This document shows positions 22,256-60,977 of a stretch of DNA of 60,977 nt, in pieces. A program made the position numbers and the translations under genes. The notes below the pieces were generated by a model. It was not told where the DNA came from. It did not search any database and saw only the letters and a list, made by a program, of their open reading frames with translations. Within the stretch, counting starts at the first letter, position 1, and each line of letters begins with the position of its first letter. Origin of the DNA: a virus (lineage: Duplodnaviria; Caudoviricetes); the IMG/VR virus record IMGVR_UViG_3300021519_000001, positions 1 to 60,977 of that record. The stretch is one strand, 5' to 3'.

Positions 22256-22258
22256 TTC

Positions 22259-23368
22259 ATGGCAGACGCAACAGTTTCCACCCAAGAACAGATAGTCCGG
22301 GAAGCCCCGGAGATTGAAGCCCAAAAACTGGCGCTTTTACAAAGCTCCAAGGCTCAAGTAGATGCAACCAACCTTGCTGCTCAGAAAGGTAATTTCCTGA
22401 CTCCAAACTATCAGATTGCGGGCATGACCCAAAATCAGATGGATGCCATTCGTGGCGGCGAAGCAGGCATTGGTGCATACCAGCCGTATCTATCAAATGC
22501 TGCAAACCAATTAGTTGCTGGCCAACAAACCACTGGTGCTGCTGTTAATACCTTGCAAGGTGCGGATACACGTAATCAGTTCGGTGCAGCGCAGGGTTTA
22601 GCAGGGCTCGCGGCTCAAGGGACTTTAGGCGCGGCTCAACCTATTGGGCAGGCGCAAATCTCCCAGTACATGAACCCCTACATGAATATTGCACTGCAGC
22701 AACAACTTGACGAAATGAATCGTCAAGCGCAGATTCAAGGTCAAGGTTTGCAGGCGCAAGCTACAAAAGCAGGTGCTTTTGGTGGTACCCGTGAGGGTAT
22801 TCAACGTGCTGAATTGGGCCGTAATTTAGCTCAAACACAAAATCAAGCGATTGCAAATGCTATGCAGCAAGGATATGGCCAAGCCTTGTCTACTGCACAG
22901 CAGCAACAGCAAAACCAGATGGCGGGGTACAACCAATTAAATAACATTGGTCAAGGTATTGGATCGTTGGCCACGGGCCAGTTTGGTATTGGTTCGCAGA
23001 TGGCTCAAGGCCTTGGCTCATTAGGCATGCAGCAAGGCAACTTGGGCACACAAGCAGCCGCTTTGGGTCAATCTGCACAAGGTATGGGCCAGCAGGATAC
23101 TAACTTCTTGTACAACTTGGGTGCGATGCAGCAAAAACAAACGCAGGCCGAATTGGATGCAGGTCGTCAAAACCAGTTGCAGCAAAATATGCAGCCATAT
23201 CAGCAGTTGGGATTCTTGTCTGATATCTACAAAGGCGCACCGTCTACTCAGATGGGTGTCACAACTTCTGCCCAACCCACTCCAAGCCCATTCCAGCAAA
23301 TTGCTGGTTTAGGCACAGGTATTTTGGCTACAACAGCGGCGGCAAAAACCGCTGGTGGCTTGTTTTAA
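22259..23368 (+). CDS. Ejection/pilot protein
   Basis: Q/G/A-rich; YMNPY, GAFGG.R, C-terminal amphipathic segment. Confidence 0.7.
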   Translation: MADATVSTQEQIVREAPEIEAQKLALLQSSKAQVDATNLAAQKGNFLTPNYQIAGMTQNQMDAIRGGEAGIGAYQPYLSNAANQLVAGQQTTGAAVNTLQGADTRNQFGAAQGLAGLAAQGTLGAAQPIGQAQISQYMNPYMNIALQQQLDEMNRQAQIQGQGLQAQATKAGAFGGTREGIQRAELGRNLAQTQNQAIANAMQQGYGQALSTAQQQQQNQMAGYNQLNNIGQGIGSLATGQFGIGSQMAQGLGSLGMQQGNLGTQAAALGQSAQGMGQQDTNFLYNLGAMQQKQTQAELDAGRQNQLQQNMQPYQQLGFLSDIYKGAPSTQMGVTTSAQPTPSPFQQIAGLGTGILATTAAAKTAGGLF

Positions 23369-23377
23369 GGACGCATC

Positions 23378-25753
23378 ATGAAGAATGAGATTTTGAAGCG
23401 CGCCATGTTTGCGATGCCTCTGTCAAAAGAGTCACGTAACAGCGGCATCATGGCTGGGTTTGACGATGAAATGCCCGAAGAGATGCCTGAGGAGCCCGAA
23501 AGCGACATGCCACAGATGGCGCGCACGCCTCAGAATCCTGAAATCTTGATGAATACTTTGCGCGGTGATATGCGTTCTACGAATGCACGTGTGCAAGAAC
23601 TAGCGCAAATGGTTGGCGATCAGGCTGCGCAAGAAACGCCCCCAGAAGTTTTAGCTTTGCTGCAAGCGCAACTGGCCGCTCCTCAAGGCGGTATTGGTGC
23701 ATTGCCACAAGGTCAGCAGATGGCTCCGCCTCCTATGGGCATGCCCCCACAGGGCGATCAAGGCGGTATGCCACCACAAGGAATGCCTCCCGGAATGGAG
23801 GGCGCTGGCCCTTTTTCACAGGGCGGGGCTGAGCAGGCTCCGCCCACTCCTGATGGCATGCCTCCAGCACATGCCGCTGCTGGTATGCTCATTACGCCTC
23901 TTACACGTGCTGCTCAATTTATGGGCGATAAGGCCGCGCAGTATGGCCCTGCGTTGAACCAATATTTGGGCAACCTGACCATGCGCGCTCAACCAACAAT
24001 TCAGCGCATGACGGGTGGTAATCCTGCGATGCCCTTATCTGTGCAAGGACGAGAGACCTTGGTCCAAGGACCTGCCGGCACGATTGCTGAAGGTGTTGGA
24101 ACAAAGCTCGCTCCTTACACAACGATGGGTCCTTTGATGACCCCTACGTTTACTGAAGGCTTGAGGATGGGTGTGCAGCGCGCGGCACAAGAATACCCAC
24201 GTATGACAGAAGCTTTGTCTCGCATGTCTCCTGCTTTAGGTTTGGGTGCAGGGTCATTGATGGCATTACCTTTCATGAAGGATTCCAGCACTCCAATGAC
24301 CCCTGAGCAACAGGCTGCTTATGACGAAAAGATGGCGCAACTGAAGGCTATTGATCAAATGCCTTCGCCTTCTCGTACCCAACAAATGGCACAGCCCCCT
24401 GCTGCGCCTGCTGCATCCGCTGCAGAGAAGCCTGCATACAATCCCATGGGCATGACTGCCGCACAGCCAAATGATTTTGCTACACAAGCAGAAATCGATG
24501 CTCAAGCGCCTGCTAAATCTACTCAGGATTTCATCAAGACTGCGCTTAAGGAAAAAACCCGTGGTGAGCGGATTAAGGAAGGCTACGCAGAACTGTCACC
24601 TTTGTTCTCTGAGATTTTGGGCGACAACAAAGAAGATATGAAGACAAATGCGCTTTTGATGCTGGCAGATGCCGGCTTTAGATTGGGAGCAAGTCGTCAG
24701 CCTACGTTTGCCATGGCTGCAAGCGAAGCTGCAGCTAACTTGCCCAAGGGCTTTATGGCGCTTTTGGCACAGTCCAAGGACCGCGATCTCAAGATCAAGT
24801 CTGCTGCTTTGTCACAGGCGTTTACCGACGTTCAAGAGCAAGACAAGTACGCTCAGCAGACAAAGCTGGAAGTGCTCAAAGGCGATTTCCGTTTGTTGTT
24901 GGAAAAAGCCAAAAACGGCGGTGCTACTGTTGAGGACGGTGGTGCCGGTTTGCTTGTTGCCAAAACCAAACAAGGCGGATTTGCTGGTGTGTCGATCAAT
25001 CCGCAGGACCCAACAGTGCAGTCTGCTTTGCAGAGCCGCTGGACATTGCGCGACACAGACAACCCATTTGTCGAGAACCGCGGACAAGCGCCAACATCAG
25101 TGGAAACAGACAAAGCAGAGCGTGTTAAACTTACTTCAACGCTGCGTGCTTTGGACAACAGCTTGTCTACGCTTGATAACCTCAAGGGCACCTACACAAG
25201 TTTGTACAGTCCCGGCACGTGGTTTGTGGACAAAGTCAACAACTTGATTGTTCCTATTGATTTTACAGGGCTGGTACGTCCTAACGTGAATCAAGCAGAC
25301 GCTGCACAGCGCGTATCTTCTGGCATGAATTCCATCTTGAAAAGTATTGCTTCTGCCAACGACAGTGGCCGTGTTGCAGTGCAAGAGCAAGAATGGGCAC
25401 GCAAAACTGCTGAAAACATTTCTGATCCCAATGCATTCTTTCAGGACAAAGAATTGGCAGCTAAAGGTTTTACCAGTTTAGAAGCCATGCTGCGTAATGC
25501 ACGTCAGCAGACGTTGACACAGCTTGGGTATGAGAACAACGATTATGCAATGCGTACCCCAAACACGGGTACAAAAAACGATCCGTTTGTTATTCCTTCT
25601 GATAAAGACAGCCAACGCGTGATGTTTAACTTCCTTGGTAGTACCATTGGTAAGTTGCAGGATCCAAAAGCTATGGTTTATGTCCAGATGCCAAACAACA
25701 GCGTGCAACAATTTAATCCTACTCAATTGCGTGGCCTGATAGGAAACCAATAA
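23378..25753 (+). CDS. Internal virion/ejection protein (791 aa)
   Basis: IL.R.MF N-terminus, P/Q/M-rich low complexity then helical; position. Confidence 0.65.
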   Translation: MKNEILKRAMFAMPLSKESRNSGIMAGFDDEMPEEMPEEPESDMPQMARTPQNPEILMNTLRGDMRSTNARVQELAQMVGDQAAQETPPEVLALLQAQLAAPQGGIGALPQGQQMAPPPMGMPPQGDQGGMPPQGMPPGMEGAGPFSQGGAEQAPPTPDGMPPAHAAAGMLITPLTRAAQFMGDKAAQYGPALNQYLGNLTMRAQPTIQRMTGGNPAMPLSVQGRETLVQGPAGTIAEGVGTKLAPYTTMGPLMTPTFTEGLRMGVQRAAQEYPRMTEALSRMSPALGLGAGSLMALPFMKDSSTPMTPEQQAAYDEKMAQLKAIDQMPSPSRTQQMAQPPAAPAASAAEKPAYNPMGMTAAQPNDFATQAEIDAQAPAKSTQDFIKTALKEKTRGERIKEGYAELSPLFSEILGDNKEDMKTNALLMLADAGFRLGASRQPTFAMAASEAAANLPKGFMALLAQSKDRDLKIKSAALSQAFTDVQEQDKYAQQTKLEVLKGDFRLLLEKAKNGGATVEDGGAGLLVAKTKQGGFAGVSINPQDPTVQSALQSRWTLRDTDNPFVENRGQAPTSVETDKAERVKLTSTLRALDNSLSTLDNLKGTYTSLYSPGTWFVDKVNNLIVPIDFTGLVRPNVNQADAAQRVSSGMNSILKSIASANDSGRVAVQEQEWARKTAENISDPNAFFQDKELAAKGFTSLEAMLRNARQQTLTQLGYENNDYAMRTPNTGTKNDPFVIPSDKDSQRVMFNFLGSTIGKLQDPKAMVYVQMPNNSVQQFNPTQLRGLIGNQ

Positions 25754-28700
25754 TGCCAACCTTGATGAATTCCCGTGGTGAGATGGTGGACTTTGCAACC
25801 GGTGAGGTTGTTGGTCGTGCTGAGGGCGTTCCTACCACAACCACCGAGCCCCGTGCCGGTGGCGAGGCTGCGCAAGATGTACAAACACAAGGCGGGGACC
25901 GTGTTAGCGGCCTGCTAAACAATCTTTCATGGGGCTTTAATTCAGCCCTTTTTGCTATTCCTGATGCTGCTCAGCGCCTTATCGGCAAGGGCATGGGAAT
26001 GGATGAGAAACAAGTATTCCAATTCACCAATCTCTTCAACAAGGGCGTACAAGCCCCAAGGAACGTTGAAGAGCGCTACGCCCGCGCCGTAGGCGAAGGC
26101 GTTGGTGGAACCATGCCCTTCACTGGCATTCTTGCCTATGCTGGGTCAGTGAAACCGCTTGTCTCTGCGGCTACGCCCGCAACAGGCCTTCTTAAAGGAA
26201 TTGCAGATGATGCTATCAAATATGTTCAACAAAGTCCGAGAACGGCTGCAGCTTTGGATATCGCGTTTGGTGCAGGCTACGAAGGACTTCGTCAAACGGT
26301 TAAAGAAACAGTAGACGACAGCAACCCCTACAAGAAGATCTATGAAGAGTTGCTCCCTGCAGCAGCATTCATCGGTCTTCCTGTAGCTGCCGCAAACCTG
26401 CCCTCTGTGCGTGGTGTGAAGTGGATCTCTGACAAAATCAAAGGCGTATCAAGCGGTCTGGGTGAGATTGAAAAAGAAACACTGCAGGGCCTGCCCGGCA
26501 TGTACAAGCTGCCTATCATCAACGTGCTCCCAACCATACTGATGAAACGTGCGGAGAGCAAGTTGGCACAGGTGTTTGGCCCTATCTCCGAGAGCCCCGA
26601 AGCACAGCAAGCATTGAAGCAACTTGAAGCCGCCTTGGCGGATCCCCGCGTTGCAAATGCGGGTTTCATGTTTGATGCTGCTGAGAAGACAATGTATTCA
26701 CCTTTGGTGCAGCGCAAAGCAGAACTCCTGCAGCAGCTTGGCCCCAAGGAGTTGGAGATCACCAAAGAGCGCATCAACAAGAACCAGCAGGCGCTGGACA
26801 GTTTGTTCTCAAGCTTCTCTCCAGAAGCACGCAAGCCTATTCAAGAAGCGTTCACCGCGGCCCAAGCAGATCGTCAACAGTTCTTTGAGAGCTTGCTGAA
26901 GAACCAAAAGGACCTGACAGATGCGGAAGTAATGTCAATCTCCGAGCGCCTAGGACCACAGAACATTGATCTATTGAATGATGAACTGCGCGGTACTTTG
27001 ATGGCCCGTATGGAAATGGATGCCAAAGCACGCGGCAATATTTTGCGCCGCATGGGCTTGAAGCAGGCCGTGTCGCCAGAAGGTTTGCCAATGCCTACGC
27101 GTGATCAAGGTGTTTCCTTGTTCCCTGCCCGGGATATTGAGTCTGCTGCCAAAGAATTGATCTCCAAGTATTCCCCAGAGCGCCCATCAATGAGCGTGCA
27201 GATTCCTGAGCCTATTCGTTTGCTGCAAAAGTTTGTGCGCACACAGGAAATTGCTCGGGAAAAAGCCGAGGCAGATATGTTGGTGCAATTGACTGATCAA
27301 GCAATTGGTGATCAGCTTGCCGGCCTTGGTAAAACACTAGACCCTGACATGCTTTCAGGCCTACGGGATGCGGTGCTTTCTGCCGTCCGTGGTGAGAAAC
27401 CAAAGACCGGCCGCAAAACTGCAAGCCTGAGTGAATTGTTGCCTCTGCCTGATGCAAAGGGCAACATCTCCATTCGTGCGATTGTGCCGGGTCGCAATAT
27501 TGTGATTAACCCCACACAGCTTAAAGCCGATGCAGCACGTGTTGCTGAAGCAAATACAGCTATTGATTTGAATTTGCCAGAGGCGCTTGACTATTTGCAG
27601 TCTGCTATGCGTTTCCGCAATCAGTCTGTGATCAATTACAACGGCTCAATGAAGCGAGGTAGCAGCCGTATTCAGGATGCACAGCGTCACATCGACACAG
27701 GCAACGCCGTCTACAAGGACATTGAAGGCCTTGTGCTGAACAACGTCCCGCGGATCAAGCAAGAGTACGATGGCATGAAGATGGTCTTAGAGGACTATGC
27801 TGCTGCCTACGAAAAGAACCTTCCCCTGCTGTTGACACAGAAGACACGTGGCGGCGATGAATTCCTTTTGCCCAACGAACGCTTGCTCCAGACTGCTTTC
27901 TCCAGTGCCGACAACTTAAAACAGTTGCAGCTTGCTGTCAGTGGATCACCCCAAGCTACCTCCATCATGGAGCGAGGAACAATTGATTGGCTGCGTAGTA
28001 AAAACGTTGTTGGCGCTGACGGTTTGGTCGATCCCCAAAAGATCCGCCAAGTTTTGGACAAGAATAAAAACATTGTTGAAGCCCTGCCTGCTAACTTGCA
28101 AATGAAGCTGCAAGACGAAGTAAAGCTGGCTGATGATTTTGTAACCCGTTTGGGCGAGATCGATGCCCGCCGTGTAGGTGCTAAGGACCAAGAGCTTGAT
28201 AGCTTGCTTGCCAAAGCAACACGCCCCGGTGCTGACCCTGCACAAACACTGCAAACTGCCCTGCGTGATCCTGCAACTATGCAGACATTGGTGCGTGGTG
28301 TGGAAAAAGATCCAGAAATGCTGGCAGCCTTGCGCCGTTCTGTGTTTGACGTGGCAACTGGGGGTGCCCAAAAAGGTGGCGCGCTTAAGTCGTTTATCGA
28401 CAACAACGAAGGCTCGCTCAAGATACTGTTTAAAAATACAGCCCACTTGGACGACCTCAAAACATTGGCTGATTTGCAGCGCCGTGTGAATGCCTTTGCC
28501 GACGTAACTGGACAGATCCCTATTTTTGAAACTTCAGATCAGCAGTTAAAGCGTTTATTTGGCGCAGGTGTGCAGTTCCTCACAACCACGGCCCGCGAGG
28601 CCGCTGTAGGTCGTATAGCCCCCTCCACGGGTGCTTTGGCGGTAATGCTGCGTATGGCGGGTGGTTTGGAGAACCAGATTTACCAACGTATTTTCACCAG

Positions 28701-29127
28701 AGCTTTGGAAGACGCAGAGTTTGCCAAGCGGATCACGCATGTGGGCACACCACAGGATGCACAAAAGTTGGCGGCTGAGTTGGAGAAGATTGGCATTCCA
28801 AAGTCTGCCTACCTGCCCAACATGAAACGCGTTACCGCACAGACTGCCGCACAAACAGCAATCAGTGATCAGCCAGAAGCAGTCGGTAATATGCCCAGCC
28901 TGCCCGTGGTCCCCGGAACAAGCGCCCAGCAGATGCTGAAGAAGATGCCGCCTGCTCCGCCAACACGTGGAACAAACTTCAACCCCCGCCTGCCAACAGC
29001 GCCTGCTGTGCAGCCCGGAGGTGGTGCGGGCAATATTCCATTGATGTATCCTTCAATGTTCCCCAATGACCCGATCAGTGGATTGCTGCAGCAGCGCCAA
29101 GCCCAGCTACAAGGTCAACAAAGATAA
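25753..29127 (+). CDS. Large internal virion/ejection protein (1124 aa)
   Basis: All-helical composition, C-terminal Y..MFPND motif; last large gene of virion module. Confidence 0.65.
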   Translation: MPTLMNSRGEMVDFATGEVVGRAEGVPTTTTEPRAGGEAAQDVQTQGGDRVSGLLNNLSWGFNSALFAIPDAAQRLIGKGMGMDEKQVFQFTNLFNKGVQAPRNVEERYARAVGEGVGGTMPFTGILAYAGSVKPLVSAATPATGLLKGIADDAIKYVQQSPRTAAALDIAFGAGYEGLRQTVKETVDDSNPYKKIYEELLPAAAFIGLPVAAANLPSVRGVKWISDKIKGVSSGLGEIEKETLQGLPGMYKLPIINVLPTILMKRAESKLAQVFGPISESPEAQQALKQLEAALADPRVANAGFMFDAAEKTMYSPLVQRKAELLQQLGPKELEITKERINKNQQALDSLFSSFSPEARKPIQEAFTAAQADRQQFFESLLKNQKDLTDAEVMSISERLGPQNIDLLNDELRGTLMARMEMDAKARGNILRRMGLKQAVSPEGLPMPTRDQGVSLFPARDIESAAKELISKYSPERPSMSVQIPEPIRLLQKFVRTQEIAREKAEADMLVQLTDQAIGDQLAGLGKTLDPDMLSGLRDAVLSAVRGEKPKTGRKTASLSELLPLPDAKGNISIRAIVPGRNIVINPTQLKADAARVAEANTAIDLNLPEALDYLQSAMRFRNQSVINYNGSMKRGSSRIQDAQRHIDTGNAVYKDIEGLVLNNVPRIKQEYDGMKMVLEDYAAAYEKNLPLLLTQKTRGGDEFLLPNERLLQTAFSSADNLKQLQLAVSGSPQATSIMERGTIDWLRSKNVVGADGLVDPQKIRQVLDKNKNIVEALPANLQMKLQDEVKLADDFVTRLGEIDARRVGAKDQELDSLLAKATRPGADPAQTLQTALRDPATMQTLVRGVEKDPEMLAALRRSVFDVATGGAQKGGALKSFIDNNEGSLKILFKNTAHLDDLKTLADLQRRVNAFADVTGQIPIFETSDQQLKRLFGAGVQFLTTTAREAAVGRIAPSTGALAVMLRMAGGLENQIYQRIFTRALEDAEFAKRITHVGTPQDAQKLAAELEKIGIPKSAYLPNMKRVTAQTAAQTAISDQPEAVGNMPSLPVVPGTSAQQMLKKMPPAPPTRGTNFNPRLPTAPAVQPGGGAGNIPLMYPSMFPNDPISGLLQQRQAQLQGQQR

Positions 29128-50289: not shown

Positions 50290-51759
50290 ATGCACTCTAC
50301 AAAACCCGATGACGTACAAGACGAACAGCTTCGCCTAGAGCTACGCTTAAAACTCTTGGAGGCGCAGGAACGTGCAACCACTGATTTCCTGTCTTTCTGT
50401 CAATACGTCTGGCCCGAGATGCTTGTTGGGGAACACCACAAACGTATCGCCAAGGCCCTTGATCGTGTAATAACCGGCGAGTGCAAACGCCTGATGATTG
50501 CGATGCCTCCCCGTCATGGCAAGTCCCAGCTTGGCAGCTACCTGTTCCCGGCGTATCTTATGGGTAGAAACCCTGACACCAAACTTATTGTCGGCTCCCA
50601 CACCGCGGAGCTTGCTCAACGCTTTGGTAGGATGATCCGTAACCTTGTTGACGACGAGAAATACAAAGAGTTGTTCCCAAAGATGGCCCTGTCAGTTGAC
50701 AGTAAGGCTGCCGGTCGGTGGAACACGTCTCAAGGCGGTGAAGCGTTTTTTATTGGTAAGGGCGGTGCGATGACGGGCCGTGGTGGTAATGTTGTTGTAC
50801 TTGACGATATTTTGGACGAGCAGGATGCTGTGTCTGAAACTGCGATGGAGAACACGTGGGAGTGGTACACGTCCGGTCCTCGCCAGCGTTTGCAACCGGG
50901 CGGTGCAATCATTGTCATTAATACTCGGTGGAAGACCGACGACCTTTCTGGCCGCTTGCTCAAGCAGCAGGGCTATTTAAAGTCAGACCAGTGGGAGGTG
51001 TTGGAGTTCCCTGCCATTTTGCCTAGTGGTAAACCCTTGTGGCCCGATTACTGGAGCCTTGATGAGTTAGAAAAAGTCAAGGTATCTATTGGTTTGAAGA
51101 AGTGGAACGCCCAGTGGCAGCAGCAGCCAACGAATGATGAAGGTGCGATCCTGAAGCGTAACTGGTGGCGCAAGTGGAAGTACGATGATCCACCAGAGTG
51201 TGAGTATCTGATTCAGGTATACGACACGGCGTACTCAAAGAAAGAGACTGCTGACTTCTCTGTTATTAGTACGTGGGGCGTGTTCTATCCTGATGCTGAC
51301 TCTGGTGCAAATTTGATGCTGCTTAATGTGCGCAAAGGCCGTTGGGATTTTCCTGAGCTAAAGCGCATGGCTAAAGATGAATACATGTATTGGAAGCCGG
51401 ACAATGTTTTGATTGAGGCAAAAGCTACTGGCACGCCCTTGCAGCAGGAACTGCGTAAAATGGGTATTCCTGTCACGATGTTCTCCCCGGGCGGCCGTAG
51501 GTCTGGTCAGGACAAAGTCAGCCGCGCCAATGCCGTGGCCCCGCTCCTTGAGTCTGGAATGATCTGGTATCCAGAGGGACAGGAGTGGGCCGAGGACCTT
51601 GTAGAGGAATGTGCGGCTTTTCCTAATGGGAACAATGACGACCAAGTGGATACTGCGGTGATGGCTTGGACAAGATTTCGTGCGGGTAACTTTATTGCGT
51701 TGGACACGGATGATAATGAAGAAGACGAGCCGGATACAACACCTGTTGAGTATTATTGA
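50290..51759 (+). CDS. terL: Terminase large subunit
   Basis: MPPRHGKS Walker A, LDD Walker B, DTA...AD.S, IE.KA.G, FP.G..DDQVD. Confidence 0.95.
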   Translation: MHSTKPDDVQDEQLRLELRLKLLEAQERATTDFLSFCQYVWPEMLVGEHHKRIAKALDRVITGECKRLMIAMPPRHGKSQLGSYLFPAYLMGRNPDTKLIVGSHTAELAQRFGRMIRNLVDDEKYKELFPKMALSVDSKAAGRWNTSQGGEAFFIGKGGAMTGRGGNVVVLDDILDEQDAVSETAMENTWEWYTSGPRQRLQPGGAIIVINTRWKTDDLSGRLLKQQGYLKSDQWEVLEFPAILPSGKPLWPDYWSLDELEKVKVSIGLKKWNAQWQQQPTNDEGAILKRNWWRKWKYDDPPECEYLIQVYDTAYSKKETADFSVISTWGVFYPDADSGANLMLLNVRKGRWDFPELKRMAKDEYMYWKPDNVLIEAKATGTPLQQELRKMGIPVTMFSPGGRRSGQDKVSRANAVAPLLESGMIWYPEGQEWAEDLVEECAAFPNGNNDDQVDTAVMAWTRFRAGNFIALDTDDNEEDEPDTTPVEYY

Positions 51760-51804
51760 AATGCCGCATAAAATGTCTTGAATATTTGACGAGGACCTCG
51801 GACC

Positions 51805-54800
51805 ATGGCCCAACAGACGTTTGAAGAGATAGTTGCTGCTGTAAAGCAAGCGGAGAGCCGCGGCAAGCGCTACAAGGATGACGGTAAAACTCTGACCACC
51901 AGTCCCAAGGGTGCCCTTGGTGAGATGCAGGTCATGCCCAAGACCATTACAAATCCCGGCTTTGGTGTAACCCCTGCTAAGGATAAGTCCCCGGACGAGA
52001 TTGCGCGTGTAGGTCGTGACTATTTGCAGGCCATGAAGCAAAAGTATGGTGATACGGACAAAGCTTTGGTTGCGTATAACATGGGCCCGGGAGCCACGGA
52101 CAAATGGTTAGCTGCTGGTGCTGATCCAAAGAAACTGCCGGAAGAAACCAGAACGTATGTTCAGCGCGTCAATGGATTGCTTGGCGGAAATGTTTCACGT
52201 GAAACATCTGTTGCAAAGACAGAACCTACTCCTGCCGAAGAGATCATGACCAAGGCCCTTCCTGCGGGGACCACGGCCCAAGCTATGCCAAAAGACGAAG
52301 TCAAGACTTTGGCAAAGATGGATGTCAAGGAAATGCCTGCCAGTTATCAAGCCGCTTTTGCTTTAGCGGCTTTGGCAGATGCGCAGGACGAAGAAGACGA
52401 CAGGGTATACAACGAGAACAAGGGCACGGAAACGGAAGCTTTCTTTGCCAACTACAAGCCTGTCAATCATTTGGCATCGCTTGATTTAAGCGTCAAACCT
52501 TTAACGTTCAAAGAAGGTGGGGAAGTAGATGCTGAAGATTTAAGCAAACCATCCTTTGGCAATCCTAATATCAGAAAGCAAGGCGAGGCAGCAAGGAGAC
52601 TTGCTGCTTTGCGGGATGTCAACACATTACCCGACCCTAAAACATATGCCGTAGCTTCTGGTCTGATGGGCACGGCCCCTGATCAGATGGGGTTCAGTGT
52701 GATGCATCCTAAGTACAAAGAGATTATGGATGTAGCCAATCCTGCTTTTGCGGCGGGTACAGCGCTGCAAATTGCCCCTGTTGCACAGGGTCCCGGCATG
52801 GGACGTATGGTGGGTGCAGCGGAAAAAGCTTTGGAGCCAGCGGTGCGTAGGACGCTGGAAGGTGGAGGTAAGGCTTCGCAAATGTTGCAAGATTTGGCGG
52901 CTCCTCCTTCGCAAATGTTTGTTCGTGCAAGGCCGGAAGCAGCAGCGCGGCACGCGGACCTGCAGGCGCAAGGCTTGTCACCAGAACAAATCCGTGCGCA
53001 GAATTTAACTTTGGTTGATAACCGCGGTAATTTGCTGGAAGAGATCAGTGATGCGCCGGCAGTTTTGCAGCAAAAGACTGCCTCTGTTCCACGTATGTAC
53101 TACGATATGTTAAAGCATCCCGAACTTCAAAGCATTTATCCAGCATATGACATGCCTGATGTGCGGATAGGAACAACAAGGCGCAAAAATGCCCCGTTAG
53201 CTGCGGCGTCTTTTGGGGAGAAAGAAGGAATTCAAGGAACAGTGCGTAGTTTGCCGGGTGATGATGTTAGGGGCACGGTCCGCGGAACTTTATTGCACGA
53301 GGGCCAGCATGCAATCCAGTCCATGGAAGGCTTTACAGAGGGTGCAAACCCTAGTTCTTTTGTTGCTTACGTTAAAGCAAAGCGCGGTATATACGATGCT
53401 GATCCTACGGTCAACGAAAATGTTATTCGAGAAATGGAGAGGGTGTATCCAAATTTGTCTGACATTACAGACAGGATAGGGCAGGATCTTAAAGCTAGGT
53501 ATGGCAAAGTTTTTCCTTCAGACAAACGCATGGGAGAAGCTTTGTACAGGCACATGCCGGGGGAGGTGCAGGCAGAGTTGGCTCGTATTCGCAGTAACTT
53601 GACGCCGGACGAGCTTAAAGCAACGCCGCTTGAAGTGTCTATGCAGCAATTAAATATTAATCCTGCCAATATTTTAGAAATGAACAAAATGGGTTCACGC
53701 CTTGACAGGCAGATTGGTGATCTGGAATATGATGTTTATGGCTACGCGCAAGGCGGTCCTGTGTATCGTGCAGATGGCAGTCCTGAAGAAGGCGAGCGCA
53801 AGTTAGACCGTGAAACAATGGATATGTTGCGCAGGCAAGGTACATCTCCTGCGTCGTTACAACGAGTGGCTCCTCCTGCTGACATAAGTTCTTCTGCGGC
53901 AGGTTTGCCCGGATTGATGTTGTTTGCCGATCCACGCATTGACCAGACTAATGCGTATGGCTACATGTTGGATGGTGGGGATGATACAAAAAACCGTGCC
54001 ATGGCTCAGGCAATGTTTTTAAACAAAAGTAGATCAGAAGACTACCCCGATACGATTGCGCATGAAACAGAACATTTGTTGGCACGTCAGAATTTAGGAT
54101 CTGCGGCTAATATTAATAGTAAGTTTGATGAGTTGATAGGGAATAAGGGCACTTCTCGTCTTAATTTTGTTAGAGACGCCGTTAAAGCTGCCCCTTACTT
54201 AAAAGAAAAATACGACCTGCAGTCTAGCTATCTTGATCCAAAAATGTTTGAGTATCAATCTAAATTTGGTTTGGGCAAAAACCTTTTGTATGAGCAATTG
54301 GCTTCTTTAGCTGCGTTGGAGCAGCGCCACAAGATAGATTTGACCAAAGATCCGGAGTTGCGTAAGACTTTGTTCTCACGTCCCGATGTCCGCGAGACGT
54401 ATAACGCCCTTACTGGTCTGCGTCAAACGCGCCTAGACCCACGGGACTTGCCCCCACACACACGCGTACCTGAACCCGGCATGTTAGATGCAGTTAAAAA
54501 GGTTTTTAAGCGTGCCGATGGCGGGATGGTGTACCGCGCAGACGGAAGTCCTGAAGAAGGCGAGCGTTTGACCCCGCAGCAGATAGAACGAATCGCGGCC
54601 CAAGAATCAGCAGAGCGTGAAGCAGCAAGCAATGCTGCATTTATTGCGCAGAAGTCCGGTATTGGTCGCAAGGCAGGCCCTGTTTCTCAAGCGTTGCAGT
54701 CTGGTCAGGGGCAGATAGAGTTTCTTAAAGGCATGACCAACGTACCGCAGAATATTTTGGGTGCGCCGATGGATATTTCCAACATGATTGCCGGCATATA

Positions 54801-56559
54801 CGGTGGTAATGTTGAAAAGCCGTTTATGGGCAGTGAGTATCTGAAGGAAAAATCACGGGCCGCGGGCCTAGGGTTTACCCCATCTACCGACCCAACGCTG
54901 GCTGGTTTCTACGGTGCTGGTGATTTAGGTAGTAACCTTGTCAATCCTGCCGGCGTTGCGCGCACGGGTGTAAAAGCAGCGGAAAAAACAGGGGAAGCAG
55001 CCAAGATGTTGGCCCGTGATTTCCAAGGTTACAACCAGCAGTTGGCTGTTCCCGGTGCTTCGTATGCGGTTCGTAATAAGGGCACACCTGTTGCTATGAC
55101 AGGGCTTCCATTTTTGCCTAATGTTGATGAAGCAGAAAAGGTAGTCAAGAATGTGACAATTGGCCAAATGAAAGAACCTTTGGCAGTAAAGGATAAATCT
55201 TTAAACGATTGGTTTTCAAAAACGGTTACGCGATATCTTCGTTCAGATTTTGCAACACCTCAAGATCAGTTGGTCAGGGCTGCAGAGGAGGGCAAGATGT
55301 TGCACCTTGCTCCTAAGGAATTTTCTGATTCGGCAGAAGATCAAGCACTTAAACATTTTTTAGGCCGTAGACAATCTGATTTAGAGTACATGCGTCAAGC
55401 AGAAGGGTTTGGTAAATCCAATATGGCAACGCAGCCATATGGACAACGTATAGAAGACATAACAGATATTTCTGCGTATCCGGAAAGGGTGGGGGATTTA
55501 ACACCTAACAGGGTGCCTGCAAGCATGCGCAATCTTGTAGAAACTCAGCCCGAAGCACGGGTAACGGATTTTGCGCCCAACATAGTAGAAAACCTAAAGT
55601 TAGAACAGTTGCGGGACAAGATGCTGGATGTTCGTCAATCAGGAGGAACATATGGGGCATATGGCCAGCCTGCCGCTAAAATACCTTCAGAGTTTTTGTT
55701 ACCAGACGATACCTTGGCAAAATTAAATGTTGCAGCAGCTTCTAATCGGATGGCGCGGTATACAAAGTGGCAAGATGAAACTAGGCAGAAGATGGCCACT
55801 ACGGCTCTGCGCTCGGATCCTGAGTTTCCAAGAGCGGAGTTACAGGAAGGTAAGTTTTTAGGTGTTGCATTGCCTAATATTAAGAAAAACCCACAAATTA
55901 AACAACTGGTTACTGATGTGGGATGCGATGGTGGGTGGTGCACAAGGTACACACCAAACGCTGAAGCCTATGCCTCTGGGTTTAGTCGACTGCATGTGAT
56001 AGTAACGGGAGAAGGCAAACAAGCGCGCCCTGTTGCCCAGTTTGCTATTGCTGATTCTGGCCCATCCTATGATACAAAGCGTTTTTCTATTACTGAGGTA
56101 AAAGAAAAAGGAAACACAAAAGATTTTGCAAACAATCCAGCGCTTCCCGCAATTCAAGAATACATCCAGTACCTTGACAAAACATACGGTGGCCTTGATT
56201 ATGTGGACAATTTAAAAGGGCTACGTTTGACAGCCTTGCCTGAATACCCAATGCAACTGTTAGATTTGTTTAAACCTACTGTTCAACAAAGAAGGATGTT
56301 GGAAAACAAATATGGTAGTGAGGAAAACGGCTTAAGGGCAGTCAGGGACAAAGCAGTTGATTTAAACAATGGATCTCGGTTCATGACGGGAAATGAGGAC
56401 AAGGTTGCTAATACGCTTGAGCAAGCTATGCAACTACTTGTCGGTCCAAAAGAAACCTTAGCACGCCGAATCCAAATGAATTTATTTGGACTTCCCAAAG
56501 AAAAGGCGCATGGGGGTATGATCGAGCGCCAACCCAACGATAACCGCAGATATCTGTAA
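51805..56559 (+). CDS. Large modular (polyvalent-type) virion protein: SLT transglycosylase + two HExxH metallopeptidase-like modules + PcfJ-like module
   Basis: AES...S.KGA.G.MQ.MP...AYN.G; LLHEGQH..Q...GE..A; AHETEH; GWCT; repeated VYRADGSPEEGER junctions. Confidence 0.75.
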   Translation: MAQQTFEEIVAAVKQAESRGKRYKDDGKTLTTSPKGALGEMQVMPKTITNPGFGVTPAKDKSPDEIARVGRDYLQAMKQKYGDTDKALVAYNMGPGATDKWLAAGADPKKLPEETRTYVQRVNGLLGGNVSRETSVAKTEPTPAEEIMTKALPAGTTAQAMPKDEVKTLAKMDVKEMPASYQAAFALAALADAQDEEDDRVYNENKGTETEAFFANYKPVNHLASLDLSVKPLTFKEGGEVDAEDLSKPSFGNPNIRKQGEAARRLAALRDVNTLPDPKTYAVASGLMGTAPDQMGFSVMHPKYKEIMDVANPAFAAGTALQIAPVAQGPGMGRMVGAAEKALEPAVRRTLEGGGKASQMLQDLAAPPSQMFVRARPEAAARHADLQAQGLSPEQIRAQNLTLVDNRGNLLEEISDAPAVLQQKTASVPRMYYDMLKHPELQSIYPAYDMPDVRIGTTRRKNAPLAAASFGEKEGIQGTVRSLPGDDVRGTVRGTLLHEGQHAIQSMEGFTEGANPSSFVAYVKAKRGIYDADPTVNENVIREMERVYPNLSDITDRIGQDLKARYGKVFPSDKRMGEALYRHMPGEVQAELARIRSNLTPDELKATPLEVSMQQLNINPANILEMNKMGSRLDRQIGDLEYDVYGYAQGGPVYRADGSPEEGERKLDRETMDMLRRQGTSPASLQRVAPPADISSSAAGLPGLMLFADPRIDQTNAYGYMLDGGDDTKNRAMAQAMFLNKSRSEDYPDTIAHETEHLLARQNLGSAANINSKFDELIGNKGTSRLNFVRDAVKAAPYLKEKYDLQSSYLDPKMFEYQSKFGLGKNLLYEQLASLAALEQRHKIDLTKDPELRKTLFSRPDVRETYNALTGLRQTRLDPRDLPPHTRVPEPGMLDAVKKVFKRADGGMVYRADGSPEEGERLTPQQIERIAAQESAEREAASNAAFIAQKSGIGRKAGPVSQALQSGQGQIEFLKGMTNVPQNILGAPMDISNMIAGIYGGNVEKPFMGSEYLKEKSRAAGLGFTPSTDPTLAGFYGAGDLGSNLVNPAGVARTGVKAAEKTGEAAKMLARDFQGYNQQLAVPGASYAVRNKGTPVAMTGLPFLPNVDEAEKVVKNVTIGQMKEPLAVKDKSLNDWFSKTVTRYLRSDFATPQDQLVRAAEEGKMLHLAPKEFSDSAEDQALKHFLGRRQSDLEYMRQAEGFGKSNMATQPYGQRIEDITDISAYPERVGDLTPNRVPASMRNLVETQPEARVTDFAPNIVENLKLEQLRDKMLDVRQSGGTYGAYGQPAAKIPSEFLLPDDTLAKLNVAAASNRMARYTKWQDETRQKMATTALRSDPEFPRAELQEGKFLGVALPNIKKNPQIKQLVTDVGCDGGWCTRYTPNAEAYASGFSRLHVIVTGEGKQARPVAQFAIADSGPSYDTKRFSITEVKEKGNTKDFANNPALPAIQEYIQYLDKTYGGLDYVDNLKGLRLTALPEYPMQLLDLFKPTVQQRRMLENKYGSEENGLRAVRDKAVDLNNGSRFMTGNEDKVANTLEQAMQLLVGPKETLARRIQMNLFGLPKEKAHGGMIERQPNDNRRYL

Positions 56560-56568
56560 GGACACAAC

Positions 56569-58953
56569 ATGCCAATTGAAAAGAACATGACAATCGACGA
56601 CTTGCCTGAGGGCGATGTCGCCGTTGAGATGGAAGATGAATTGCCCTCGGATATTGACATTGAGTTTGATACAGAAACCGGTGAAGTTGTTGTAAACATT
56701 GGCGCAGAAGACGACGATGTGGCCTATGACAGCAACTTAGCCGAGATCATTGAGCCGGATGTTTTGCAGCTTATTTCTTCTGACTTGATGTCGTTGTTTG
56801 ATGCTGACAAGTCTTCACGCAAAGAGTGGGAAGAGCAGTACAGCAAGGGCATGAAGATGCTGGGCTTCACGTTTGAAGAGCGTACCAAGCCATTCAAGGG
56901 CGCGTGCGGCGTGCAGCACCCACTTTTGACCGAGAGTATTGTTCAATTCCAAGCCCAAGCGCTTAAAGAATTGATGCCCGCGGGCGGCCCTGTTCGTACA
57001 CAGGTGCTGGGCAAAGAAACACGTGAGAAGTTGATGCAGGCAGACCGCGTCAAGGACTTCATGAACTACCAAATCACCACGGTGATGGAAGAGTACACAC
57101 CTGACTTTGATCAGTTGCTGTTCTATGTTGGCTTTGGTGGCTCGGCGTTTAAGAAGGTTTACTACGACGAGGCCAAGGGCCGCATGGTCAGTGCTTTGGT
57201 GCTGCCAGATAATCTGTATATACCGTATACGGGCTCATCGGTGATGAGCGAATGCCAACGAATCACGCACCGCGTTCCGATGTCCACCAACGATTACCGC
57301 AAGGCGGTCATTCGTGGTCAGTACTTGGATACAGCGCAGATGACGACGGCGGCAGAGACGGGCCAGAGCATTATCAAGAAGGAAGTTGACCGCACAACAG
57401 GCGTTGATCCTACGGGTGTGGAAGAAGAGATCTGTTTGTTAGAGTTCTTGGTTGATCTAGACATCCGCGGCTTTGAGCACAAGGATGAAGACGGCGAAGA
57501 GACGGGTATCAAGCTGCCATACATCGTCACCATTGATGAGATCTCCCAGTCTGTTGTAGGCGTGCGCCGCAACTGGAAAGAGGGCGATTCTCTGTTTGCG
57601 CGTAAGCAGTACTATGTGCATTACTTGCTGGTCCAAGGCCCCGGAGCTTATGGCTTGGGCTTCTTGCATTTGGTTGGTGGTCTTACTAAGACAGCTACTT
57701 CTGCACTGCAGCAATTGGTGGACGCTGGAACGCTCGCTAACCTTCCTGCAGGCTTTAAAGCCAAGGGTGCGCGTATTGCAAACGACGATACACCTTTGTC
57801 GCCCGGTGAGTTCAGGGATATGGACGCTGGTGGTGCGGAGTTGTCTGCATCTTTGTTGCCATTGCCATACAAAGAGCCAAGCCAGACGCTATTTGCGCTA
57901 CTAGGTTTCTGCGTAGATGCTGGTCGCCGTTTGGCAAGCATTACCGACATGCAAGTTGGTGACAGCAACCAGAATGCTGCTGTTGGAACGACGATTGCGT
58001 TGCTTGAAAAAGGCAGTGCGGTCATGTCTGCAATTCACAAGCGTTTGCATTACAGCCAACGCATGGAATTTCAATTGTTGGCCAAAGGTTTTGCAGAGTA
58101 TTTGCCTACTGAGTACCCATACGATGTGCCCGGGGAGAGCCGCAAGATCAAGGCACGTGACTTTGACGACCGCATCGATGTTTTGCCTGTTTCTGACCCC
58201 AACATCTTCTCTGTTGCCCAGCGTATCACGATGGCGCAAACCCAGTTGCAATTGGCTCAGAGCGCACCGCAGATGCACAACATGTATGAGGCTTACTACC
58301 GCATGTATGAGGCTATTGGTGTGCGGGACATTGACACCATCTTGAACAGCCAGCAAATTGATAAGCCAAAGGATCCTGCAAGCGAAAACGCACAGGCATT
58401 GGACGGCTCACCGCTCAAAGCTTTTGCCGGCCAGCAGCATGATGCGCACATCATGACGCATATCTTGTTTGGTATGAGCCCAATGATGGGCGGTATGCCT
58501 AACGTGGCGGTTACTCTGCAGAAACACATCTTTGATCACATCCGTTTGAAGGCGGAAGAAGAGGTGGAAGCGGAGTTGTTCCAGCAGTACGGCACAGATC
58601 CTGACCAGCTTATCTCATCTTTGCAGCGTGAAGCGATGATTGCAATCAAGGTTGCGCAGGGCTTCCAAGAAGTCAAGGCTTTGCAGGTTCAATTACAGGG
58701 CCCACAGACTGATCCTTTGGTGGAATTGAAGAAGCAAGAACTATCCCAAAGCGCTCAGCGCGACCAAGCCAAGCTGCAGATGGATCAACAACGTCTTGGA
58801 TTGGACCAACAGAAGGAACAAGCGGATACACAGTTTGATTCTGCTCGTTTGGCACTGCAACAAGCAGCGGCTGCACAGAAGAACTCACAAGATGCAATCA
58901 GAAATGCCCAACAAGGAGCAAAAAATGCAAACCAAAGCAGCAAAAAGTCCTAA
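56569..58953 (+). CDS. Portal protein
   Basis: 794 aa after TerL; D..SR.EW, P.L.E...QFQA, GS.FKKVY, DAGTL.NLP.GFK, AVGTT.AL; Q-rich coiled-coil barrel. Confidence 0.9.
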   Translation: MPIEKNMTIDDLPEGDVAVEMEDELPSDIDIEFDTETGEVVVNIGAEDDDVAYDSNLAEIIEPDVLQLISSDLMSLFDADKSSRKEWEEQYSKGMKMLGFTFEERTKPFKGACGVQHPLLTESIVQFQAQALKELMPAGGPVRTQVLGKETREKLMQADRVKDFMNYQITTVMEEYTPDFDQLLFYVGFGGSAFKKVYYDEAKGRMVSALVLPDNLYIPYTGSSVMSECQRITHRVPMSTNDYRKAVIRGQYLDTAQMTTAAETGQSIIKKEVDRTTGVDPTGVEEEICLLEFLVDLDIRGFEHKDEDGEETGIKLPYIVTIDEISQSVVGVRRNWKEGDSLFARKQYYVHYLLVQGPGAYGLGFLHLVGGLTKTATSALQQLVDAGTLANLPAGFKAKGARIANDDTPLSPGEFRDMDAGGAELSASLLPLPYKEPSQTLFALLGFCVDAGRRLASITDMQVGDSNQNAAVGTTIALLEKGSAVMSAIHKRLHYSQRMEFQLLAKGFAEYLPTEYPYDVPGESRKIKARDFDDRIDVLPVSDPNIFSVAQRITMAQTQLQLAQSAPQMHNMYEAYYRMYEAIGVRDIDTILNSQQIDKPKDPASENAQALDGSPLKAFAGQQHDAHIMTHILFGMSPMMGGMPNVAVTLQKHIFDHIRLKAEEEVEAELFQQYGTDPDQLISSLQREAMIAIKVAQGFQEVKALQVQLQGPQTDPLVELKKQELSQSAQRDQAKLQMDQQRLGLDQQKEQADTQFDSARLALQQAAAAQKNSQDAIRNAQQGAKNANQSSKKS

Positions 58954-59331: not shown

Positions 59332-59790
59332 ATGGAAATGACTGCATTAGAGAAACGATGGGCTGAGGAAGCGGTTGAAAAAGCCGCCGCTGAAGCTTCT
59401 GCTGCTGAGGCTGCCAAGATTGAAGCGGCAGAAGAAGAGCAGAGGGTTGAAAACATCAAGGAACACCTTCCACAGCCTACAGGTTGGCGGATTGTGGTGT
59501 TGCCCTACAGAGGCGCTAAGAAAACCAAGGGCGGCATTGAATTAGCCGAAGAAACCTTGGAACGACAGCAACTCACTACCACTTGCGCATACGTTTTGGC
59601 CGTTGGCCCACTTGCCTACAAAGACACCGACAAGTTCCCGGACGGTCCTTGGTGTAAAGAAGGCGATTGGATCATTTTTGGCCGTTACGCGGGCGCACGA
59701 ATGGGCATCAATGGTGGAGAAATCCGTATTCTCAATGACGATGAAATTCTGGCTCGCATTAGCGATCCAGAAGACATTCTGCACATGTAA
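59332..59790 (+). CDS. groES: Co-chaperonin GroES
   Basis: P.PTG.RI.V, KTKGGI.L, VLAVGP, GDW..F.RYAG, ILNDDEILA. Confidence 0.88.
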   Translation: MEMTALEKRWAEEAVEKAAAEASAAEAAKIEAAEEEQRVENIKEHLPQPTGWRIVVLPYRGAKKTKGGIELAEETLERQQLTTTCAYVLAVGPLAYKDTDKFPDGPWCKEGDWIIFGRYAGARMGINGGEIRILNDDEILARISDPEDILHM

Positions 59791-59798
59791 GGAAACAT

Positions 59799-60716
59799 AT
59801 GACACAAGTAATGAACGATTCGCAACTTGAGTTTGACCTTGGAGAAGGTGAAAAAGCCACAGACGTGAGTTTTGACCGTCCTGAGAATGACGAGGGTCCT
59901 GCGGCACCTGAACCAGAAGCTAATATTTTCCAAAAGCCTGAACAGGAGTCTGCTCCTAAGAATGAATTGGATGAAGTTAGTGAAGGTGTGCAAAAACGCA
60001 TCTCTAAACTTACTGCGCGCATGCGCGAAGCCGAGCGCCGTGAGCAAGCAGCCCTTGAGTACGCTAAAGGCCTGCAAAACCAGACACAAACGCTGCAGCA
60101 AAAGCTTGTACAGACGGACTACAGCCGTTTGAACGAAGCTAAAACACGTCTGGAGACCCAGCAAGTCCAGTTGCGCCAGATCATTGCCAAGGCACGTGAA
60201 GAAAACGATGTCAACACTGAGTTGGAAGCACAAGAGCGCTTGTCTGCTTTGGGTGGTGAGCAGCGTCAAGTAGCAGGTTGGTTGCAGTCGCAGCAAGAAG
60301 TTGTGCAGCAGCAGCAATATCAGCAAGCGCAACCAGCACCTGTTCAACAACAGCCTCAGCGCCCTGTTCCTAGCCCTCGTGCAGAGGAATGGGCAGAGCA
60401 GAACTCTTGGTTTGGACAAGACCGAGTGATGACTTATGCTGCTTGGGGCATACATCAAACACTTGTTGAACAAGAAGGTGTTGACCCCAGTTCAGATGAG
60501 TACTATACTGAACTTGACAAACGTGTTCGGAGTACTTTTCCAGACAAGTTTAGCCAATCCAGACAACAGCGTTCCGCGCCTGCTGTTGCCCCTGCCGCCC
60601 GTAGTTCGGGAATAAATAGTGCGCGCCGTACTGTCCGGCTTTCGCCGAGTCAGGTTGCTATAGCAAAAAAACTGGGCGTTCCTCTTGAAGAGTATGCCAA
60701 GTATGTTAAGGAGTGA
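59799..60716 (+). CDS. Capsid scaffolding protein
   Basis: Acidic N-terminus, long coiled coil, C-terminal LS.SQVAIAKKLGVPLEEYAK; upstream of capsid genes. Confidence 0.7.
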   Translation: MTQVMNDSQLEFDLGEGEKATDVSFDRPENDEGPAAPEPEANIFQKPEQESAPKNELDEVSEGVQKRISKLTARMREAERREQAALEYAKGLQNQTQTLQQKLVQTDYSRLNEAKTRLETQQVQLRQIIAKAREENDVNTELEAQERLSALGGEQRQVAGWLQSQQEVVQQQQYQQAQPAPVQQQPQRPVPSPRAEEWAEQNSWFGQDRVMTYAAWGIHQTLVEQEGVDPSSDEYYTELDKRVRSTFPDKFSQSRQQRSAPAVAPAARSSGINSARRTVRLSPSQVAIAKKLGVPLEEYAKYVKE

Positions 60717-60720
60717 AACA

Positions 60721-60977
60721 ATGACTAAAGTTACTATCGACAAAGCCCCTCGCGCAACCCGCGATACGGAAAAACGTCGCCGTCCTTGGACCCCTCCCTC
60801 ACGTCTTGACGCGCCTCCTGCCCCCGAAGGGTTTAAGCATCGTTGGATCCGTGCCGAAGTAAACGGGCAAATAGACAAAGCAAACGTCTACAGTCGTCTT
60901 CGTGAAGGCTATGAACTAGTCCGTCTTGAAGAACTGCCCGAAGAGTACCAAGGCATGATGCCTACCGTTGATGACGG
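60721..60977 (+). CDS. 5' part of conserved head-module protein (continues to 335 across junction)
   Basis: MTKVTIDK...W.PPS.LDAPPAPEGFKHRWIR; AAGGAG RBS. Confidence 0.85.
   Translation, partial: MTKVTIDKAPRATRDTEKRRRPWTPPSRLDAPPAPEGFKHRWIRAEVNGQIDKANVYSRLREGYELVRLEELPEEYQGMMPTVDD
60851..60977. repeat. Terminal overlap, copy 2
   Basis: Identical to 1-127. Confidence 0.97.

Follow-up and report, generated by a model that had tools for sequence, protein, structure and literature searches.

A modular protein with exchangeable cassettes encoded between the TerL and portal genes of a metagenomic phage genome

The virus record IMGVR_UViG_3300021519_000001 from IMG/VR (Duplodnaviria; Caudoviricetes) is a complete viral record of 60,977 nucleotides (nt), and the whole of it was analysed here (the window). 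Between the genes for TerL and the portal protein there is an uninterrupted open reading frame (ORF) at 51805-56559 on the + strand, which encodes 1584 amino acids (aa) plus a stop. We find that its product is a string of independent modules: an SLT domain, exchangeable cassettes (two different HExxH units, one of them behind a widespread adaptor) and a PcfJ-like C-terminal module (C-module). The modules are joined by conserved linkers, predicted to be disordered, and followed by a tail of the same kind; exchange occurs at the linkers, and the gene occupies a fixed slot beside the portal gene. The analysis followed up an earlier reading of the DNA (the original prediction), which described an ORF of this length built of cassettes between TerL and portal. 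The ORF is indeed intact, and the translation has the motifs where they were placed: FKEGG starts at aa 235 (nt 52507), YAQGG at aa 647 (nt 53743) and RADGG at aa 903 (nt 54511), HEGQH at aa 498 (nt 53296) and HETEH at aa 753 (nt 54061), and GWCT occupies aa 1377-1380 (nt 55933-55944). The parts of the ORF and the genes around it are as follows.

50290-51759, + strand: TerL, left border of the slot (Terminase_6N/6C; phrog_38, E 6e-113)
51805-52194, + strand: M1, SLT lytic transglycosylase domain, aa 1-130 (Pfam SLT, PHROG, SLT70 in PDB)
52195-52506, + strand: acidic low-complexity spacer of module 1, aa 131-234 (no family match; piece cluster 1)
52507-52527, + strand: junction 1, short type FKEGGEV, aa 235-241 (63 similarity breakpoints here)
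52528-52839, + strand: M2a, the 'FGNPN' adaptor domain, aa 242-345 (hundreds of other proteins have it almost unchanged)
52924-53058, + strand: LPD23-like segment of M2, aa 374-418 (by alignment with the Pfam LPD23 stretch of relatives)
53059-53742, + strand: M2b, HExxH domain (HEGQH 53296-53310; GEVQAELAR 53560-53586)
53743-53799, + strand: junction 2, long linker YAQGGPVYRADGSPEEGER, aa 647-665 (DNA repeat copy 1, 53752-53798; low pLDDT)
53800-54510, + strand: M3, HExxH+E cassette, aa 666-902 (HETEH 54061-54075; invariant Glu aa 830 at 54292-54294)
54511-54564, + strand: junction 3, long linker RADGGMVYRADGSPEEGE, aa 903-920 (DNA repeat copy 2, 54520-54566; low pLDDT)
54565-55071, + strand: M4a, Gly/Ala-rich helical segment, aa 921-1089 (conserved; low model confidence; common to both C-module types)
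55072-56490, + strand: M4b, PcfJ-like module, aa 1090-1562 (CDGGWC 55924-55941; predicted GNAT-like core about 55801-56457)
56503-56556, + strand: C-terminal tail KAHGGMIERQPNDNRRYL (conserved tail)
56569-58953, + strand: portal (794 aa), right border of the slot (phrog_1216, E 2.6e-37)
59332-59790: GroES/Cpn10-like gene of the head-assembly block, 3' of the portal gene (Pfam E 9.8e-10)

The original prediction took short xxxGG motifs to open each module, and these are true borders. With aa 130-1584 as the query, 254 relatives were found among 5.8 billion proteins, and the best 120 of the 254 (including the window's own protein; 920-1956 aa) were used. Breakpoints were defined as the internal ends of BLASTP alignments between the query and the 119 homologues, and were counted at a GG site if they lay within -15 to +20 aa of it. 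The three GG sites hold 162 of the 283 breakpoints (57%), compared with 7% expected. A further 29 fall at aa 1050-1099, which is the border between M4a and M4b.

The long linkers that join the cassettes have the consensus GG-x-V-Y-R-A-x-G-S-P-x-x-G-E. There are 88 long linkers in all, with at least one in 63 of the 120 proteins. The two in the window form a 47-nt direct repeat (53752-53798 and 54520-54566) that is 83% identical. The 3' half is identical over 20 nt, and the 5' half has five synonymous differences that leave the peptide unaltered. The linker peptide itself is thus under selection, and the 20 nt of identical DNA make a short stretch of identity available for recombination. A DNA joint between the two repeat copies, corresponding to deletion of M3, was not found in the contigs of four (X2, X3, X4, X7) of the 24 listed metagenome runs, these contigs being short and unable to show absence.

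The conserved tail reads GGMIERxxxDNRRYL, and the window's protein ends ...KAHGGMIERQPNDNRRYL. The general form of the tail, GG-x-[VI]-E-R-x3-D-x-R-[RK]-Y-[LM], stays constant on three C-terminal modules that are unrelated to one another, and it is the C-terminal end of 114 of the 120 proteins. None of the other reading frames in the 60,977-nt genome contains the motifs GG-x-[VI]-[YHRE]-R, GSP-x2-3-GE or DNR[RK]Y; the junction motif is not a product of chance. Linkers and tail have predicted local distance difference test (pLDDT) values below 50 in both of our structure models, and are predicted to be disordered. In more distant loci the tail reads GG-x-V...KKLI, and the tail type tracks the phage lineage. 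Relatives share these labels, and the tail type is therefore not evidence of co-evolution with the portal. A complex prediction for the portal monomer (794 aa) and the last 60 aa of the slot protein gave a score of 0.00, which says nothing either way on binding.

The composition of the relatives was analysed by cutting all proteins at GG-x-[VI] with a regular expression and clustering the pieces by single linkage. The N-terminal pieces form a single family (87 pieces), the C-terminal ones belong to either of two families (95 and 22), and the internal cassettes make up ten families or more. Among the latter, three have HExxH motifs that differ from one another, namely HEGQH (40 of 42 pieces), HETEH (39 of 39) and HEMTH (23 of 23). 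In one protein the SLT domain of the N-terminal family is replaced by a glucosaminidase. Among 68 complete-looking proteins, with an SLT piece at the start and the tail at the end, there are 24 architectures, the commonest being SLT plus C-module alone (16). Modules are therefore gained, lost and exchanged among relatives, as had been expected.

The surrounding genes behave differently. In 37 viral loci the flanks barely vary, whereas the modules do: TerL and portal are 91-99% identical in most close relatives, with modules down to about 30%. For example, the locus L012 has a TerL 99% and a portal 98% identical to those of the window, with M3 and M4a both at 95%, and an M4b of 32%. In L015 the same values for TerL and portal (99% and 98%) accompany an SLT domain of 35%, and in L021 M2b is 100% identical and M4b 31%.

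The cassettes also exist as separate genes. A scan of viral contigs with an M3 profile gave 171 relatives, of which 80 were kept, and 63 new loci (L046-L108) were analysed. In 60 of these distant loci there is a stand-alone M3-like ORF of at most 320 aa (about 250 aa). The portal gene follows within 400 nt in 53 of the 60, TerL precedes within 400 nt in 44, and both are in place in 41. In ten, a large M4b-bearing ORF lies directly upstream, and in 56 the last 20 residues of the M3 protein include GG. The portals of the distant loci are 35-76% identical to that of the window. The locus L049 illustrates the arrangement, with the order TerL, a 1043-aa protein, a 260-aa M3 protein with its own tail, and portal. 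The 1043-aa protein has a lysozyme-type N terminus, the M2a adaptor directly before M4b, and the tail at its end. The suggestion that modules may occur as separate genes thus holds for module 3, in the same TerL-portal slot. The homologues are not simply colinear at full length, as both the shuffled architectures and the stand-alone M3 genes demonstrate.

It is worth adding that three stand-alone M3-like proteins (L053, L058, L074), on contigs with no TerL or portal match, have another C terminus, ...QYKDPF.DT.R. The same ending is present on the adaptor-bearing proteins P0165, P0189, P0193, P0195 and P0210, which hints at a second tail type.

The individual modules have been further analysed. 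The N-terminal domain was originally read as an SLT lytic transglycosylase, and Pfam agrees: the match to SLT (PF01464) at aa 7-105 scores 47.5 bits against a gathering cut-off of 21.3 (E 1.6e-12). The sequences QAESRG (with E17), GEMQV and AYNMG can be read in the translation. We take these to be the SLT motifs, that is, the catalytic Glu in E-S, the GLMQ-like (GxMQ) motif and the AYNxG-like motif. M1 also matches PHROG lysin and lytic-tail families, and SLT70 in PDB.

M2 (aa 240-651) and M3 were searched jointly against 1.84 billion representatives, which gave 655 matches at E <= 0.001. The first approximately 100 residues of M2a are near-invariant (FGNPNIxRQG...RDVNTLPDP.TYA...PD.MGFSV), and this adaptor is the N terminus of many proteins of 100-2000 aa. 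In 40 matches scanned against Pfam, the domains behind it include ART-PolyVal, LPD23, PcfJ and DUF6973, together with sub-threshold GNAT and MATCAP. The stretch at aa 374-418 aligns with the LPD23 stretch of relatives, LPD23 not being called in the window's protein itself. M2a and M4a were considered as paralogous adaptors, and this was rejected (hhalign probability 0.9%). In the ESM Atlas the best score for M2a is 0.86, and a score of 0.82 leads to a cluster with P22 gp16 on 32% of its members; all are below the 0.9 mark and are leads only.

The FGNPN adaptor proteins (P0142-P0260) form a large family of stand-alone proteins, with a constant N terminus and variable C-terminal parts (ART-PolyVal, LPD23, PcfJ, GNAT-like). 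Many of them end in a second conserved motif (...GLLD, ...LLGQ or ...LLGMVAP). It looks like a polymorphic effector family that has no Pfam model of its own.

M2b was originally described by two motifs, LLHEGQH and a downstream GE..A..R. The first stands as described; the second actually reads GEVQAELAR (aa 586-594), the GE..AE part of which is conserved as GEAEAR in distant relatives. The HE.QHAIQ and GE.EA motifs are both kept in P0123, P0147, P0253, P0142 and P0158, which are LPD23-bearing relatives of 22-36% identity, so that an HExxH and a downstream acidic ligand are conserved across relatives. The comparison with DUF6782 gave E 0.092, which is below the cut-off. A joint M2 and M3 alignment for folding was dropped, as MAFFT had placed the HExxH of divergent M2 relatives onto that of M3, and M2 was folded alone. 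The best VIA match of the resulting AlphaFold model (pLDDT 67.5) is to Wss1 (5ln5), and is weak (Z 5.4, root-mean-square deviation (rmsd) 3.6, 94 residues aligned); zinc metallopeptidases account for 13 of the top 20 VIA rows.

In M3 the residues H102, E103, H106 and E179 do not vary among 38 sequences, the most distant of which are about 30% identical, and this Glu lies 77 residues downstream of the first His. Around the motif there is sub-threshold similarity to Peptidase_M78 (4 of 38 members, best E 0.001), and to FtsH and IrrE (E 0.37-1.3). On the basis of its sequence, M3 may be described as metallopeptidase-like, of the zincin-like type. The idea that M2 and M3 are both metallopeptidase modules is partly borne out, in their invariant HExxH(+E) motifs, and not in family membership, as neither reaches a Pfam family and the fold and profile similarities are weak.

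The C-module was originally called PcfJ-like, and the support for this is indirect. M4b (aa 1090-1562) is a well-modelled domain. Neither aa 1073-1584 nor the whole protein matches PF14284 (PcfJ), even at E <= 5. The lake phage DSL-LC04, however, has an 825-aa protein in the slot that passes the Pfam PcfJ cut-off (36.5 bits against 25), and the M4b profile aligns with it over about 340 columns (hhalign 97.6%, E 4.6e-12). In this alignment the CDGGWC of the window falls on CVGGYC, giving a C-x-GG-[WY]-C motif. An hhalign run with whole-protein rows against P0164 aligned the SLT parts only and was uninformative, and was redone with an alignment of M4b only. In BFVD, 13 models match M4b at E <= 0.001, and seven of these are named PcfJ-like.

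The core of M4b (model residues about 426-644) is predicted to have a GNAT-like fold. All 50 VIA rows listed for it in PDB are GNAT-fold proteins, the top match being HAT1 (1bob; Z 8.7, rmsd 5.9, 152 residues aligned), with a Z near the level that the tool calls common. Foldseek finds HAT1 in PDB at E 8.3e-4. The acetyl-CoA loop motif, which we take to be Q/R-x-x-G-x-G/A after strand 4, is not seen, and the loop after model residues 520-527 reads GNTKDFANNPALP. For this reason we describe M4b as a GNAT-like fold rather than a GNAT enzyme. The best ESM Atlas score for M4 is 0.76, below the 0.9 mark.

Turning to the genome as a whole, the window has an exact 127-nt repeat at its ends (1-127 and 60851-60977). 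The genome is therefore probably circularly assembled, of about 60,850 nt, and the gene order continues round the ends of the record. The open frames 60685-60975 and 3-335 are probably one head-region gene (phrog_36003), and the major capsid gene (961-1872) lies 3' of the GroES-like gene across the record ends. Matches of the GroES-like gene by tblastn also lie 3' of the portal gene in most of the distant loci that extend that far. By portal identity the nearest named phages are DSL-LC04 (64%), the Pelagibacter phages HTVC027P and HTVC023P (46%) and the roseophages CRP-901 and CRP-902 (38%). The best explanation is that the ORF belongs to a freshwater podophage distantly related to HTVC023P-type pelagiphages. 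Parts of the gene are near-identical in lake and freshwater metagenome contigs (24 rows from 22 studies, including one possible source), and in run X2, 20 of 24 placed pieces are at least 99% alike. No close relative of 50290-58953 was found among deposited phages by megablast.

Motifs of the same kind are found in the slot proteins of the named phages. The 201-aa slot protein of HTVC023P ends ...RGGGMARMKPTKMY, a GG-tail-like motif, and that of DSL-LC04 has three GG-x-V motifs at its start and one linker-like AGPIRRAEGSPEYGE.

A tblastn search of the whole protein against the phage collection gave matches to the SLT region only, together with one weak match. This joins aa 401-592, which is part of the LPD23-like segment plus the HExxH domain, to a 2156-aa hypothetical protein of Xanthomonas phage DES1 (L039, 3388-9858), at 26.5% identity. 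The DES1 protein is encoded in a structural region and has no Pfam match, and may be another giant polyvalent virion protein.

Some other genes of the window may be mentioned. A dedicated endolysin is encoded at 15357-15800 (phrog_7, E 1.9e-39). The adjoining gene at 15804-17912 encodes a 702-aa virion structural protein (phrog_3287), in which aa 109-170 have sub-threshold matches to a phage endosialidase beta-barrel domain and to E1_FCCH. At 18605-29127 there are four consecutive large genes (1216, 369, 791 and 1124 aa) with almost no family matches; the 369-aa protein has a weak match to a 'DNA ejection protein' PHROG (E 3.4e-7), and all four are candidate internal or ejection proteins, distinct from the slot protein. 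The genes at 11431-12546 and 12932-13972 encode paralogous Gly_rich_2 proteins (E about 1e-12, both phrog_2295, the first also with fn3); they lie on either side of a 127-aa gene and are possible fibre or receptor-binding proteins.

The slot protein can be compared with several known systems. Polyvalent proteins carry 2-15 distinct effector-type domains per polypeptide and are predicted to be packaged and delivered, according to the available part of Iyer et al. (2017; PMC5512222). The protein of the window has SLT, M2, M3 and a PcfJ-like module in one polypeptide of a complete phage genome. It resembles the systems in the available part of PMC5512222 in having many unrelated catalytic domains, in combining a lysozyme/SLT-type domain with putative zincin-like metallopeptidase domains, and in being encoded in a late or virion gene block. 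It differs from them in its conserved linker and tail and in its fixed slot between TerL and portal, and it reaches none of the Pfam metallopeptidase models of that paper, in whose main text, as far as available, the words 'linker' and 'PcfJ' occur 0 times. None of the hallmark domains (MPTase-PolyVal, ART-PolyVal, LPD families) is called by Pfam in the window's protein itself. The relatives of its M2a adaptor carry ART-PolyVal, LPD23 and PcfJ, and for this reason the protein belongs with the known polyvalent proteins; the link made in the original prediction thus holds by way of domains on relatives.

The DSL-LC04 protein (PF14284) shares the slot and the C-x-GG-[WY]-C core, and differs in having neither SLT nor HExxH cassettes. 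The T7 gp16-type internal virion proteins have an N-terminal lytic transglycosylase, which is thought to open the wall during ejection. Like gp16, a virion protein, the product described here (known from its gene alone) is a large podovirus protein with an N-terminal SLT domain. The T7 protein is not known to be cassette-built, and is encoded with other core proteins and not beside the portal gene. By tblastn, no similarity to gp16-type proteins beyond SLT was found in the phage collection. Temperate phages are said to carry MuF-domain polymorphic toxins, reportedly described by Jamet et al. in 2017, in which a portal-adjacent head gene has a constant part and exchangeable effector parts. No MuF family of Pfam or PHROG matches the window's protein at E <= 0.01, and its variable parts differ in that they lie inside the chain, several follow one another, and a specific linker bounds them.

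In the available part of the DSL-LC04 paper (PMC10611076) and the main text of the paper on HTVC023P-type pelagiphages (PMC9599517) there is nothing on the slot gene. In these same texts and the available part of PMC5512222 we did not find the linker and tail, stand-alone cassettes bearing them, the fixed slot, or the speed of turnover among genomes that are nearly identical elsewhere.

On the basis of these observations, we consider it reasonably probable that the slot protein is a modular polyvalent protein, which is incorporated into the virion via its tail, leaves with the DNA, and acts on the host. Its place in the capsid would be close to the portal, the tail serving as a shared signal for incorporation or docking, and it would leave the virion with the DNA. 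The SLT domain would open the peptidoglycan, and the cassettes would then act on host targets, either envelope or defence proteins. Recombination from linker to linker would yield functional new combinations, in frame because the peptide encoded is the same in all linkers; in this genome their DNA also shares a core of 20 identical nt. If this is so, the phage population could turn its payload over quickly.

Several points weigh against this proposal. The phage is known only from metagenomes, and we infer the presence of the protein in the virion and its ejection. The piece and architecture counts are approximate, as they come from cutting by a regular expression and single-linkage clustering. 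The order of the cassettes is largely fixed across architectures, so that much of what varies is whether a module has been gained, lost or replaced by another allele, without free permutation. The region aa 130-1584 has no Pfam, PHROG or PDB-sequence match at normal thresholds, so that only the motif and a weak fold similarity make either HExxH unit metallopeptidase-like. The two structure models are of middling confidence (pLDDT 70.3, and 67.5 for M2), and the M2 model finds nothing in PDB with Foldseek at E <= 0.001. The protein has no transmembrane-grade hydrophobic segment, the maximum 19-residue Kyte-Doolittle value being 0.93, including the Gly/Ala-rich parts.

The proposal can be taken further. 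The GG-x-[VI]...basic-aromatic tail could be a portable signal for capsid incorporation or ejection, read by portal-proximal machinery of this phage lineage, with the internal GG linkers as processed copies of it. We regard this as doubtful. If true, any cassette placed between linkers in the slot would be packaged and injected, making a natural plug-in delivery system, with a payload that in-frame recombination between linkers would reshuffle.

Other explanations have been considered. The protein might be a self-processed polyprotein, in which the HExxH cassettes release separate effectors by cleavage at the GG linkers, either prior to packaging or once the protein has been injected. The linkers are predicted to be disordered, their peptide is conserved despite synonymous differences in the first half, and cassettes are also encoded as proteins of their own, with this GG motif at their end; moreover, such processing is proposed for the metallopeptidase domains of polyvalent proteins (PMC5512222, available part). 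However, 19 of the 68 complete-looking homologues have no HExxH at all and nevertheless keep the SLT-to-C-module junction and the tail. The linkers therefore cannot require a protease in cis, and this speaks against self-processing as an obligatory step. The stand-alone M3 proteins likewise keep the tail though nothing follows it. A protease in trans is not apparent either: no phage maturation or prohead protease family was found in the scanned ORFs of the rest of the window, including those of the head block, although such libraries cannot prove absence. Self-cleavage of the linkers is possible and not needed, and we consider the explanation as a whole unlikely.

Alternatively, the whole chain might serve for envelope penetration, as a structural protein of the ejection or core type with a function like that of T7 gp16. 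The substrates of the HExxH units would then be envelope proteins or the peptides of peptidoglycan, not defence proteins, and the modules would vary with the envelope type of the host. This is conceivable, though on balance we do not expect it. It would fit the position of the gene in the head-assembly block, adjoining the portal gene, and the resemblance of the N-terminal SLT domain to internal virion and lytic tail proteins (PHROG matches, and tblastn matches in tail or virion proteins); a weak Atlas lead also goes from M2a to P22 gp16-type DNA transfer proteins (0.82, below the 0.9 mark). Against this, ART-PolyVal and GNAT-type modules are present on relatives of the M2a adaptor, and in known systems the targets of such modules are inside the cell. 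Further large proteins that are candidates for ejection are encoded at 18605-29127, one of them with the 'DNA ejection protein' match, and the slot protein lacks a transmembrane-grade segment. That the protein is a late, non-virion product, a second lysin which has accessory domains and works from inside the cell at the time of lysis, is very improbable. SLT domains do occur in endolysins, and 'endolysin' labels are among the PHROG matches of this one. However, the genome has a dedicated endolysin gene at another place (15357-15800), the position between TerL and portal is constant in phages with portals only 35-76% identical, and many of these phages have a slot protein with no lytic domain at all.

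How the parts of polyvalent proteins reach the virion, stay separable and are exchanged is the question that this locus addresses. A short conserved linker and tail mark every module border, including those of the stand-alone versions, and they do so in one and the same slot across a broad, abundant group of aquatic podophages. No function is known for the PcfJ-like module, and the GNAT-like core predicted for it comes only from the models presented here. The locus makes several ideas testable, namely the tail as a packaging signal, cleavage of the linkers, and the action of the HExxH and PcfJ-like payloads. The combination of near-identical flanks and modules of about 30% identity marks it as a hot spot of phage-host conflict in lakes.

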